Below, one piece after another: positions 2,958 through 14,368 of a stretch of DNA of 18,819 nucleotides. Both the position numbers and the translations under genes were made by a program. Under the pieces are notes generated by a model. The model ran no database searches. It was not told the DNA's origin and worked only from the letters and a program-made list of their open reading frames with translations. The stretch covers positions 1-18,819 of the forward strand of contig JBHLPL010000018.1 of assembly GCA_048939465.1 (NCBI GenBank), in the 5' to 3' direction. Origin of the DNA: Promethearchaeota archaeon. GTDB taxonomy: Archaea; Asgardarchaeota; Odinarchaeia; Odinarchaeales; JBHLKK01. Each line of letters begins with the position of its first letter. The first letter of the stretch is position 1.

Positions 2958-5873
2958 TCATCCTTTGGTGACGCCGAGGGGGCGCAGTCTTGCGACCATT
3001 GTTGCGATGCCTAGGTTGTGAGAGACTTTTGCAACTCTGTCGATGTCTTTATAGACACCGGGGGCTTCTTCGCTAATAACCCTGCTACTTGCTGCCTGAA
3101 CAATTATACCTTCTTTTTCAAGTGCGCTCTTCACCTCACTCCCCCAGAATGTCTTCTTAGCCTTCATCCTGCTCATTACACGCCCTGCACCATGTGCTGT
3201 GGATCCAAAGCTAACATCCATGCCCTTGGCTTTCCCTATCAAAAGATAACTTGCCGTGCCCATACTGCCTGGCAGTAGCACCGGCTGCCCAATATCCTTG
3301 TAATCTTGAGGAATTTCTGGATGGTCTGGCGGAAAAGCTCGTGTAGCCCCCTTCCTGTGAACATAGCACTTGGCACGCTTTCCATTTACTTCGTGTTCTT
3401 CAATTTTTGCGATATTGTGGGCTACATCATATATTAGGTGTAGACCAAGCTCCTCTGCATCTTTCTTGAAGACATTCTCAAGTGCCTCTCTAACCCAATG
3501 TGTTATAGCTTGGCGATTACACCACGCAAAGTTCGCAGCACAACTCATGGCTGCATAATAATCCTCCGCCTCTCTGCTCTTGGAAGGAGCACACGCCAAT
3601 TCCCTATCCGGAATTGAAATCTTATACTTGCGAATTGCTTGTTCCATGACTCGGAGATAGTCTGAGCAAACCTGGTGTCCGAATCCTCGGGAACCCGTGT
3701 GGATCATAACCGTAATCTGTCCTTCATGAGTGATGTTTAGAGTGTTGGCGATGGCTGGATTATAGATTTTATCGACATATTGAACTTCCAAGAAGTGATT
3801 TCCGCTTCCCAAACTGCCTAGCTGAGGTTGACCTCTCTTCTTTGCTCGTGGAGAGGCTTTGTCTGGATTGGCTGTTTCAAGACGCCCTTCGGCCTCGCAG
3901 TGTTTAATATCCTCATCCCATCCGTAACCATTATTCACTGCCCACTGTGCACCGTTAATCAAGACCTGGTCGAGGGCGGACTCTGATATTCGTATCTTGC
4001 CCTCGCTACCAACGCCGGTAGGAACCTGCTTAAACAGCTGAGAGACTATTTCTCTAATATGGGGCAAAGTTTCTTCTTTAGATAAGTCCGATCTCAATAG
4101 ACGGACCCCACAGTTTGAGACGGTGACATTGTTTGCCACAAAATTATGAGCTTCTGCTACTGTAAAATCATACACAAATCCGTCATAGTTTATGACAGAG
4201 ATGTCCTCTATCTCATCCAAAAGAGTCCCAAATGATCTAAGCTCCTCCAATGATCTTCTTCTGAAATCATTAAAGGAATAGAAAGTCTTTGTGATTCTTT
4301 GGCCTACGTTTTCATAATAGCACCCTTCGATAAATCTCTTGTTTGCGTCTTTGTCACAAAGCAACTTCTGAACTTCTTTCAGGTTAAGGCCCTTTTTCTT
4401 GAGTTCCTTCACTCTTTTGTTTATCCTATTTCTCTTCCTAGTGAGTCTTTTCTTAAGCAAGATATATTGAACCGCGATTTCTGCTAGTTCGGACCTCTTT
4501 CTATTATACTCAAAACCGATTTTTCTCCACAACTTCAACAGATTCTCTTCTTTTGCACTTATCTCAAGTCTTAGTCTTACAACTTCTCCTTCCTTGTTTC
4601 TGGCTTCCTCTCTTTCTGCTATTTTTGTCACTCTGACGCCAAATTCCTCCAGCAATTGCATTATTTGGATGAGGAATTCCCTACCCGTCTGTTTATATTC
4701 CATATTCTTGTTTTGAGGTAGTATTGGTGCATAAAATCCTGTTTTTGAGTGTGTTTCAGGCGAAGTCAACTCTGCTCCAAAGAATCCTGCCAAGAACAGA
4801 CGTTTAATCCACTTAGGCGACCTCATCATCCAGCTTGGAACTAGCACATCTTGATTAGCCTTTTTGCCAACTGGCATACCTGCCCTAATCAAGATTCTTG
4901 CGAATTCTTGGGAGTAAATATGTAATTCAGTTGAATTTGATTCGAATTCCTTTTCTCCATACTGGGTCTTTATCCTAGAAGCTCTGCTTCTTTCGACTAT
5001 CTTCGAGTGGTATCCTAACCTCTTTATGTCACTCTGCATTGTTTCTAAATCGCATTTCTCGCCGTAAGCACATACCCTGTATTTTCCTTTGGAGCACGTT
5101 AATGTTCCATCTCCCAGAATGTACCCGAAAGTCTTTGCTAGAATTGCCACTTTTTCCTCATCAAAGGAATTCTCTATGTAGCTGTAATCCTCTTCATGTT
5201 TGCATCCTTCAAAATATACTACAGAGATTCTATCTTTCTTATCCAGCAATCCTGCTTTCTTAAACTCCTCACCTGTGAGTATGGGATGATCTTCAGAACA
5301 TCTAATCTCAAGCCCTGTCCTCGTCTTTATGCTCAAAATCCTATTATCTGCTTTTCTCTTCATGAAAGCAATTATCGGACGAGACGCGATTTCTTTGTCA
5401 AAAAGGCAAGCAAGTCTTTGCCCAATGATTTTGAAGCTTACCTGATAATTTGATATATTTCTCATCTTATCTTTCTCAATTAATTCCTCAAAATCTTCAA
5501 CATTTCTCCAGTATCCAAATTCAGACAGTATTCTTGTTCCTGCGGCTAAGCAGTTTATGTCGTAACCAACTCCGCCTGGTGAGATCACTCCTTCATCGTA
5601 ATCTATAGCGGCAACGCCACCTATGGGGAAGCCATAACCTTGGTGGGCATCCGGGAGCGCTATTGCATATTTATATATCCCCTGCAAACAGCCTACATTT
5701 GACAACTGTTCCAGCGTTAGATCCGTCTTAATTTTGCTCATTAATTCTTCATCGGCATATACTATCCCTCGGACTTTCATGCAAGCCTTATAAGTCTGAG
5801 GAACCTCCCAGGAGTATTTTTCAATCTTTCGAACAGGAACAGCCTTTCGATTTAGAACACGTTTTGAGGACAA
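2958..5873 (-). CDS. rtcB: RtcB RNA-splicing ligase precursor (971 aa; 491 aa after intein removal)
   Basis: RtcB motifs 'LPDAHQGYGFPIGG', 'GVGYDIN|CGVRL', 'GSGNHFLE', 'IHTGSRGFGH', 'HRKGATRA', 'STAHGAGR' and 'EEAPGVYKD'. TTG start with SD GGAGGAGGT (5882-5890). Confidence 0.97.
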   Translation of the reverse strand: MSSKRVLNRKAVPVRKIEKYSWEVPQTYKACMKVRGIVYADEELMSKIKTDLTLEQLSNVGCLQGIYKYAIALPDAHQGYGFPIGGVAAIDYDEGVISPGGVGYDINCLAAGTRILSEFGYWRNVEDFEELIEKDKMRNISNYQVSFKIIGQRLACLFDKEIASRPIIAFMKRKADNRILSIKTRTGLEIRCSEDHPILTGEEFKKAGLLDKKDRISVVYFEGCKHEEDYSYIENSFDEEKVAILAKTFGYILGDGTLTCSKGKYRVCAYGEKCDLETMQSDIKRLGYHSKIVERSRASRIKTQYGEKEFESNSTELHIYSQEFARILIRAGMPVGKKANQDVLVPSWMMRSPKWIKRLFLAGFFGAELTSPETHSKTGFYAPILPQNKNMEYKQTGREFLIQIMQLLEEFGVRVTKIAEREEARNKEGEVVRLRLEISAKEENLLKLWRKIGFEYNRKRSELAEIAVQYILLKKRLTRKRNRINKRVKELKKKGLNLKEVQKLLCDKDANKRFIEGCYYENVGQRITKTFYSFNDFRRRSLEELRSFGTLLDEIEDISVINYDGFVYDFTVAEAHNFVANNVTVSNCGVRLLRSDLSKEETLPHIREIVSQLFKQVPTGVGSEGKIRISESALDQVLINGAQWAVNNGYGWDEDIKHCEAEGRLETANPDKASPRAKKRGQPQLGSLGSGNHFLEVQYVDKIYNPAIANTLNITHEGQITVMIHTGSRGFGHQVCSDYLRVMEQAIRKYKISIPDRELACAPSKSREAEDYYAAMSCAANFAWCNRQAITHWVREALENVFKKDAEELGLHLIYDVAHNIAKIEEHEVNGKRAKCYVHRKGATRAFPPDHPEIPQDYKDIGQPVLLPGSMGTASYLLIGKAKGMDVSFGSTAHGAGRVMSRMKAKKTFWGSEVKSALEKEGIIVQAASSRVISEEAPGVYKDIDRVAKVSHNLGIATMVARLRPLGVTKG
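4113..5552 (-). mobile_element. Intein with LAGLIDADG homing endonuclease in RtcB (aa C108-N587, 480 aa)
   Basis: Begins 'CLAAGTRIL'; block B 'IRCSEDHPILT'; LAGLIDADG-like helices 'FGYILGDG' and 'FLAGFFGAE'; block F/G 'VYDFTVAEAHNFVANNVTVSN' followed by extein Cys. Excision restores 'GYDINCGVRL'. Confidence 0.95.
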
Positions 5874-12850: not shown

Positions 12851-13780
12851 CTATTGATTTTCCATTATTTTCTTGATTTCGCGGTACCTGGTTCTAAGCG
12901 TTACCTCGGTAATCCCAACAACTTCTGATATATAACTCTGGGATTTCGCCAATCCTAATTCTTGAGACGCGATATATAGAGTGGCGGCAACCAATCCCCT
13001 TGGATCTTTTCCTGCAACCTTCTTCTTCAGAATGAGATCTTTCAGTATTGAGACTGCCCTGCCTTCAACCTTACTTCCAGCACTTCCAGCAAGACCAAGT
13101 CTGTTGACGAATTGGGACACAAGTAACGTAGGGTTTGGTGGAGGAAAGCGCAATTTCAGCGTTTGGACGAGGATTCGGTAACAACGGCTAACGACCGTTT
13201 TCCTGGCTGAGGATCTTTTTGATATTTCCTCGAAGGTTCTGGGGACTTCATCTAGTCTGCATGCGGCATACAATGCAGCAGTTGCCATCGCCTTAATACT
13301 CTGCCCCCTGAGGAGCCCCTTCTTTAGAACTTTCCGGTAAAAGACTGCTGCAGTCTCTTCCACTGTCTTGGGTAGATTAAGCTGTCCTCTTAGTCTCCTT
13401 ATCTCTGTAGAAGCTATGGCTAGGTTTCTCTTTCGCCAGGTCAATCTGCTATCTAGTCTTCTAATTCTAATCATGCTTTGATACTTTCGAGGGGAAAAAC
13501 TCTGATCATAAGTATCGCGTCTTCGTCTGCTAATTACTGTTGCCAATCCTTTGTCTGGTAGCATATGCGTAGTCGGCAGACCTCGGTGAATTTTCTTCTC
13601 TTCTTCCCTATCAACAAAGCCGCTATCCCTATAATCAATTATGTGCTCCGATATTACAAGACCGCAAGTTTTGCAGATTACCTCTCCCCGAACAGGGTCA
13701 TCTATGATATCTTGGGCACCACATTCTGGACAAACAGACAGAGGGGAATACTTCTCGGTATAAGACTTAGAGATAACCAG
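12851..13780 (-). CDS. tfb: Transcription initiation factor IIB (TFB) paralog, full length about 309 aa, probable CTG start
   Basis: The frame continues upstream of the ORF-track start (13564) through Zn ribbon 'CPECG...GEVICKTCGLVI'. It includes 'DKGLAT', two cyclin repeats ('LLRGQSIKAMATAALYAACR', 'GKDPRGLVAATLYIAS') and BRE helix 'TEVTLRTRYREI'. In-frame TAA at 13796-13798. Confidence 0.9.
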   Translation of the reverse strand: MVISKSYTEKYSPLSVCPECGAQDIIDDPVRGEVICKTCGLVISEHIIDYRDSGFVDREEEKKIHRGLPTTHMLPDKGLATVISRRRRDTYDQSFSPRKYQSMIRIRRLDSRLTWRKRNLAIASTEIRRLRGQLNLPKTVEETAAVFYRKVLKKGLLRGQSIKAMATAALYAACRLDEVPRTFEEISKRSSARKTVVSRCYRILVQTLKLRFPPPNPTLLVSQFVNRLGLAGSAGSKVEGRAVSILKDLILKKKVAGKDPRGLVAATLYIASQELGLAKSQSYISEVVGITEVTLRTRYREIKKIMENQ

Positions 13781-13789
13781 CCTATAATA

Positions 13790-13797
13790 ACCTCCTT
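13790..13797 (-). promoter_or_regulatory. Shine-Dalgarno sequence of tfb
   Basis: AAGGAGGT on the minus strand, 9 nt before the in-frame CTG at 13780. Confidence 0.75.
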
Positions 13798-13803
13798 ATA
13801 GAG

Positions 13804-13843
13804 TTGACATGAACCGACATCAGTCAACACTATCCGACAGTAC
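13804..13843. repeat. Four YY(G/A)ACA motifs at exact 10-bp spacing
   Basis: TTGACAtgaa/CCGACAtcag/TCAACActat/CCGACAgtac. Confidence 0.6.
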
Positions 13844-13857
13844 ATATGTTTAATCAG

Positions 13858-13865
13858 TTTATAAA
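13858..13865. promoter_or_regulatory. Palindromic TATA (TTTATAAA) in the tfb/wHTH divergent region
   Basis: On the minus strand it is preceded by purine-rich GGAAAAGAACAACA. Confidence 0.55.
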
Positions 13866-13933
13866 TGTTGTTCTTTTCCGTACCTAAAGGATTTTAAACC
13901 TGCGTTTTTTATTTCTCTTTGAGAGGAATCAAC

Positions 13934-14368
13934 ATGGATCAACACTACGGCTCAGAATTAGAGGAGAAGATGGTATCCCAAATGAAGACTCTCAAGACCA
14001 TGATTGAGTCTATTACTCATCAAATAGAAGCTCTTCAAAGAACTATTTCCGAAAGCTTCGAAAGCCTGCAGAGCGCGCTAAGAGTAAGCTCCGAGGAATC
14101 TCCAACTCCTATGCGAGAAATGTTCTCTGCTTCTTCAAACCAATTCTCGGATAGGTACTCCGAACTATCTTGGGCTTTGAGTCGGACTCTGAGGGCTGTT
14201 AAGGAAGCCTACAATACAGACTCTTCTGGCATAACTGCAAGGAAGTTGGCAAATGAGATAAATGTGTCCAGAAGCAGGGCAAGCGAGCTGCTCAACGAAT
14301 TGGTTACGAAAGGACATCTTGAGAAACATCAGAAAGAGAGATCCATGAGGTTCAGACCTACTAAGTAA
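13934..14368 (+). CDS. Coiled-coil + C-terminal winged-HTH putative transcription regulator
   Basis: N-terminal heptad-like helix 'MKTLKTMIESITHQIEALQRTI'; C-terminal 'ITARKLANEINVSRSRASELLNELVTKGHLEKH'. ATG 13934 follows GAGAGGA. Confidence 0.75.
   Translation: MDQHYGSELEEKMVSQMKTLKTMIESITHQIEALQRTISESFESLQSALRVSSEESPTPMREMFSASSNQFSDRYSELSWALSRTLRAVKEAYNTDSSGITARKLANEINVSRSRASELLNELVTKGHLEKHQKERSMRFRPTK

Follow-up and report, generated by a model that had tools for sequence, protein, structure and literature searches.

Translation of a TFB paralogue encoded on the minus strand of the window (i.e. the whole stretch of 18,819 nucleotides that was analysed) probably begins at a CUG codon at 13780, which would be selected by a Shine-Dalgarno (SD) sequence and read by initiator Met-tRNA to give a full-length protein of 309 residues. 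Initiation at this codon had been proposed in a first-pass annotation of the DNA, and the proposal is well supported by comparison of orthologues, by the pattern of selection and by a genome-wide pattern of start codons. The window corresponds to contig C31 in an assembly of 1.96 Mb and 91% completeness. The features of the locus are as follows.

12851-13780, minus strand: putative coding sequence of TFB, with 309 codons starting at CTG 13780 and a stop codon at 12853-12851; supported by the open frame, Pfam matches and a dN/dS of ~0.09 throughout
13562-13564, minus strand: ATG at codon 78, the first canonical in-frame start and the start used by gene finders; the resulting product of 237 aa lacks the zinc ribbon and B-reader
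13664-13732, minus strand: zinc ribbon (CPEC ... CKTC), Pfam PF08271, upstream of every canonical start
13739-13741, minus strand: second CTG of the frame (codon 19); replaced in three lineages by TTA or CTC and not preceded by an SD
13778-13780, minus strand: proposed CTG start, codon 6 of the stop-to-stop frame; the same in six lineages and an NCBI MAG
13782-13820, minus strand: short upstream ORF from ATG 13820 to TAG 13784-13782, separated from the CTG by 1 nt; TFB is read in the +1 frame relative to it
13790-13797, minus strand: Shine-Dalgarno sequence AAGGAGGT with core GGAGG at 13795-13791; core invariant in all orthologues
13796-13798, minus strand: in-frame stop TAA at the upstream end of the frame, overlapping the SD; TAA, TGA or TAG in orthologues
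13815-13832, minus strand: 18-nt motif TAGTGTTGACTGATGTCG in the TFB leader; second copy at 13930-13947, minus strand
13858-13865, minus strand: TATA-box-like TTTATAAA, read from the sequence; invariant in orthologues

The zinc-ribbon region and its conserved CTG codon

The stop-to-stop TFB frame comprises 314 codons on the minus strand, extending from just past TAA 13798-13796 to the stop codon at 12853-12851. Retranslation of this strand found no in-frame ATG, GTG or TTG between the TAA and ATG 13564, bearing out the original observation, and the intact zinc ribbon that had been described in this start-free stretch was recovered as a Pfam match to Zn_Ribbon_TF (PF08271, residues 21-56, E 1.6e-11). 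The ribbon cysteines correspond to codons 22, 25, 41 and 44 and are invariant in the aligned homologues. Two TFIIB cyclin repeats were also matched (PF00382, E 1.2e-35), and the encoded protein has both the zinc ribbon and the cyclin repeats of a TFB. A run of 72 sense codons without a start is not rare in itself; the telling point is that an essential domain has no canonical start ahead of it in six of six lineages, the first canonical in-frame codon in all of these being codon 35, located between the Cys pairs, or a later one. Public gene-finder products for the TFB orthologues are 237 and 276 residues in length.

Because at least four further TFB-like genes are present in the genome, this gene is regarded as encoding a TFB paralogue. 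The segment following the ribbon (13610-13630, minus strand; residues 56-62 of the protein, P0001) contains SGFVD where nine aligned homologous TFBs keep RAFT, and the predicted B-reader of this genus-specific paralogue is divergent. A TFB-like paralogue elsewhere in the genome (L005, G000:C123:3798-4418) matched across the cyclin repeats only (query residues 99-309) within a 285-codon frame. This paralogue, which was found in both sister species too, may represent a TFB that lacks the ribbon.

Conservation of the start region was examined in orthologues from two sister species, together with four assemblies from other samples and an NCBI MAG that were traced via gene-finder products. Both sister species (84% protein identity) contain the same 314-codon frame, with TGA or TAG, GGAGG and CTG at the same positions. 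The layout of stop codon, GGAGG, 10 nt and CTG is common to six lineages with 82-91% protein identity and is repeated in the NCBI MAG (L069, 84% identical), such that CTG is kept in every one of them and none of the orthologues found has a canonical codon here. Contigs from independent metagenome runs (word depths of 16x, 10x and 6.6x) exhibited no difference at positions 13778-13783; these contigs include a second strain of ~10% divergence in which the sole nearby change is TAA to TGA (run X7). None of the reads in a 1% sample of X20, the single raw-read DNA run, mapped to the locus. A sequencing error, which had been raised as an alternative, is refuted by the seven independent assemblies and these independent metagenome contigs. 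Two scans of metagenome contigs and a class-wide genome search detected no TFB orthologues beyond the genus, and a search of genome contigs returned the sister species only.

Selection on the region ahead of the first canonical start was assessed by pairwise Nei-Gojobori estimates, which gave a dN/dS of 0.085 for codons 7-77 and of 0.098 for codons 79-314. As purifying selection on codons 7-77 equals that on the rest of the gene, the zinc-ribbon form must be made, contradicting the earlier suggestion that the sole product could be a ribbon-less protein from ATG 13564. Synonymous changes start immediately 3' of the CTG, and codons 7-18 exhibit synonymous changes only.

The gap between AAGGAGGT and the CTG is 9 nt, matching the first count, or 10 nt when counted from the GGAGG core. 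The parallel originally drawn with rtcB, in which AGGAGGT is followed after 8 nt by TTG at 5873, also holds. This RtcB tRNA-splicing ligase gene (2958-5873, minus strand; 971 aa in total) is itself split by a LAGLIDADG-containing intein. Throughout the genome, GGAGG is over-represented 7-10 nt upstream of starts, and the gaps of canonical SD-led starts range from 4 to 12 nt with a mode of 7 nt. A 10-nt gap from GGAGG occurs at ~30 of these canonical starts, and the TFB gap falls on the long side of the genome's SD spacing distribution. Among the near-cognate codons that lie past the stop and ahead of the zinc ribbon, only CTG at codon 6 is conserved: the AGG at codon 5 (13783-13781), whose gap equals the modal 7 nt, is AGA in other lineages, and the ATC at codon 8 (13774-13772) is replaced by GCC, GCT or GTC. 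Homologous TFBs begin 13-21 residues ahead of the first Cys, and codon 6 lies 16 residues ahead of it. Taken by itself, invariance of the CTG is weak or uninformative evidence, as a single codon is likewise retained by all six lineages in 8 of the 29 all-Leu columns.

A CTG start is already annotated at NCBI for a TFB orthologue, although at the non-conserved codon 19. The product in GCA_048886755.1 (P0002, 296 aa) begins MSVCPECG, with the ctg at L069 401-403, which is the equivalent of the second CTG and is not preceded by an SD. This annotation agrees with the present proposal in accepting a CTG start for TFB but differs in the codon chosen, the conserved, SD-led CTG being 13 codons upstream.

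The upstream ORF and alternative explanations

The short upstream ORF, with a conserved ATG and 11-12 codons, is present in every lineage whose sequence extends that far, and terminates 1-4 nt before the CTG in the form TAG-G-CTG or TAA-TAG-A-CTG. This proximity would be expected if ribosomes finished the upstream ORF (ATG 13820) and restarted at the CTG, making the CTG start dependent on translation of that ORF. Such termination-reinitiation is nevertheless very unlikely: no SD precedes the upstream ORF, which is variable in length and differs between lineages by codon changes that are all non-synonymous, and other genes with CTG or ATT starts have the same SD geometry without an upstream ORF of this type. 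Conservation of the ATG is explained by constraint at the level of DNA, as this codon is situated inside the 18-nt motif, a second copy of which occurs 115 bp upstream. A prfB-like programmed +1 frameshift would use the same ATG, with the SD stimulating a shift to the reading frame of TFB close to the 3' end of the upstream ORF. The TFB frame does lie +1 to this ORF, and the order AGGAGG, TTA, TTA, TAG in this genome resembles the SD, 3 nt, shift codon and stop of prfB. In three lineages, however, the ORF is one codon shorter (AGGAGG, ATA, TAA) and the prfB spacing is lost; moreover, the P-site tRNA has no possible +1 re-pairing and the upstream peptide is not under purifying selection. The hallmarks of prfB, i.e. 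a conserved shift codon and stop preceded at 3 nt by an SD, together with translation of the upstream frame, were not found, and frameshifting is considered extremely improbable.

Use of another non-canonical codon, i.e. the second CTG (13741-13739) or a lineage-specific AGG (13783) or ATC (13774), is highly improbable, even though the NCBI product P0002 begins at the second CTG and the AGG has the modal gap in this genome. Codon 19 is not preceded by an SD and reads TTA or CTC in three of the lineages, neither AGG nor ATC persists in other lineages (AGA and GCC/GCT/GTC, respectively), and the restriction of codons 7-18 to synonymous changes is as in translated sequence. The shorter, 237-residue form is the one called by gene finders (P0004 and P0006), but that it should be the sole product, or that the gene is decaying with its zinc-ribbon region untranslated, is scarcely credible in the face of the low dN/dS over codons 7-77 and the four invariant cysteines. 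No SD was present at a working distance before ATG 13564, the nearest match noted being a GAGGT 15 nt upstream. Hardly more credible is C-to-U editing of the mRNA from CUG to the canonical UUG, which would also account for ACG starts in other archaea but cannot account for ATT and ATA as starts elsewhere in the genome. We know of no mRNA editing of the C-to-U kind in archaea.

The 18-nt motif was matched twice in the window (0 matches expected) and nowhere else in the 1.96-Mb genome. Orthologous loci retain both copies, which may constitute an operator pair. The copy at 13930-13947 (TAGTGTTGAYNNATGTYG) overlies the start of a divergent winged-helix (TrmB/MarR-like) gene at 13919-14368.

Near-cognate start codons across the genome

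NCBI table 11 permits CTG, ATT, ATC and ATA starts in addition to the canonical codons. Canonical starts with a strong SD in this genome comprise 157 ATG, 118 TTG and 50 GTG codons, TTG thereby accounting for about one third. A census was made of GGAGG sites located before the first canonical start and with no canonical codon at a distance of 4-12 nt, and the codons at 6-10 nt were scored. CTG was found in-frame at 9 of 87 sites as compared to 1 of 178 out-of-frame (Fisher 2e-4; binomial against codon usage 4e-5), and all near-cognate codons taken together at 20 of 87 in-frame versus 9 of 178 out-of-frame (3e-5). When the census was extended to 6-mer pieces of AGGAGGTGATC, the near-cognate counts were 24 of 89 and 9 of 171, respectively (2e-6). 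In-frame CTG, ATT and ATA are hence strongly enriched behind a strong SD that lacks a canonical start. The arrangement seen at TFB recurs in approximately twenty other genes of the genome. The cases include rps2 (uS2), a PIN gene at C69:22087, a PHP gene and a coiled-coil gene, and use of a canonical start would cut the Pfam domain in PurM (CTG), Fpg (ATA), a PIN nuclease and a PRS2-type AAA ATPase. Four of the candidate starts are located as follows.

L042:1512-1514, minus strand: enolase CTG start, 9 nt after GGAGG
L043:262-264, plus strand: PurM CTG start, 9 nt after GGAGG
L044:239-241, plus strand: ribosomal protein uS2 ATT start, 9 nt after GGAGG
L046:996-998, minus strand: Fpg ATA start, 9 nt after GGAGG and directly before the N-terminal Pro

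The first canonical codon of enolase is a TTG at codon 18, use of which would cost approximately nine positions of Enolase_N, and a start at the CTG rather than at this TTG is likely. Both sister species retain CTG at the enolase start and ATT/ATC at that of uS2; PurM was found in one of the two, again with CTG. The enolase start is ATG in four more distant relatives. The predicted Fpg start is the sharpest near-cognate case, with ATA immediately before the Pro of PELP and ATG at the exact codon in a sister species. A candidate CTG start for rpl7ae was ambiguous due to an in-frame GTG inside the SD and was set aside. The candidate CTG start of TFB is one instance of a habit of the genus, as judged from these sequence comparisons. 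Since enolase, PurM, uS2 and other housekeeping genes share such starts, this usage looks like a lineage habit and not a throttle specific to TFB.

Proposed initiation mechanism and relation to known systems

In the proposed mechanism, the mRNA would be leadered, with transcription starting ~25 nt past the TATA box (13865-13858), which would place the transcription start near 13836 and make the leader ~55 nt long. Pairing of the SD (AAGGAGGU, 13797-13790) with the 3' end of 16S rRNA would position the 30S subunit, and initiator Met-tRNA would then occupy CUG 13780-13778 with a first-position mismatch, as for GUG and UUG, and supply an N-terminal Met. The product would be a TFB paralogue of 309 residues consisting of the zinc ribbon, a B-reader/linker and two cyclin repeats.

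The translation components encoded by the genome were also inspected. Only 24 tRNA genes were detected, most of them with introns, and none had an initiator-like CAU arm in an aragorn and Rfam search of the whole assembly; 16S rRNA was not found in the assembly. The gene for aIF1 has an ATG start and an ordinary-looking sequence. This aIF1 (SUI1) gene (L068:1501-1713) is situated on contig C138, ~400 bp from L002, the best-scoring other TFB paralogue. The predicted fold of the TFB leader RNA was no better than those of shuffled sequences (z 0.11), and a 6-bp GTTGAC/GTCAAC leader hairpin was dropped as it is not conserved.

Near-cognate initiation has precedents outside the archaea. In E. coli, infC (encoding IF3) has an AUU start and is autoregulated, with IF3 itself discriminating against AUU. 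The TFB gene resembles infC in that it encodes a core factor of gene expression and has a conserved near-cognate codon as its candidate start, and the suggestion in the first-pass annotation that the start codon throttles expression is in line with the infC model. It differs in that infC is governed by an autoregulatory loop whereas none is known for TFB, and the habit observed here spans metabolic and ribosomal genes. CUG is the most used non-AUG start codon of eukaryotes, to which the Asgard archaea are the nearest group. As in eukaryotic near-cognate initiation, the CUG of TFB is presumably read as Met by initiator tRNA; in eukaryotes, however, the codon is chosen by scanning and Kozak context, whereas here the SD would place the ribosome. 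The GUG and UUG starts of archaea and bacteria are closer in type, being SD-led with the same geometry as the TFB CTG, and CUG is the fourth NUG codon; the difference is that CUG is absent from the lists in archaeal reviews. These reviews give AUG, GUG and UUG as starts, leaving CUG, AUU and AUA unlisted, and describe rejection of AUU by Sulfolobus aIF1 (PMC7531240, PMC4705826).

The interest of the finding lies mainly in annotation and in providing a further data point on the relaxed use of start codons among Asgard archaea. Gene finders restricted to ATG, GTG and TTG shorten TFB to 237 or 276 residues with loss of the zinc ribbon, and enolase, PurM, Fpg and others are shortened alike, distorting functional inference for Asgard genomes. 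CUG, AUU and AUA starts in essential genes near the root of the eukaryotes would form a natural system for studying the evolution of start-codon stringency. A weak start could conceivably also hold an alternative initiation factor such as this TFB at a low level. A wider and rather doubtful reading is that CUG, AUU/AUC and AUA behind a strong SD serve as routine starts under lowered stringency in this Asgard genus, in an estimated 15-20 or so genes (7-9% of strong-SD genes) among which are enolase, PurM and uS2, and that the CUG start could couple the level of TFB to start-codon stringency, i.e. the activity of aIF1. If this were true, a change in translation fidelity would switch a transcription programme.
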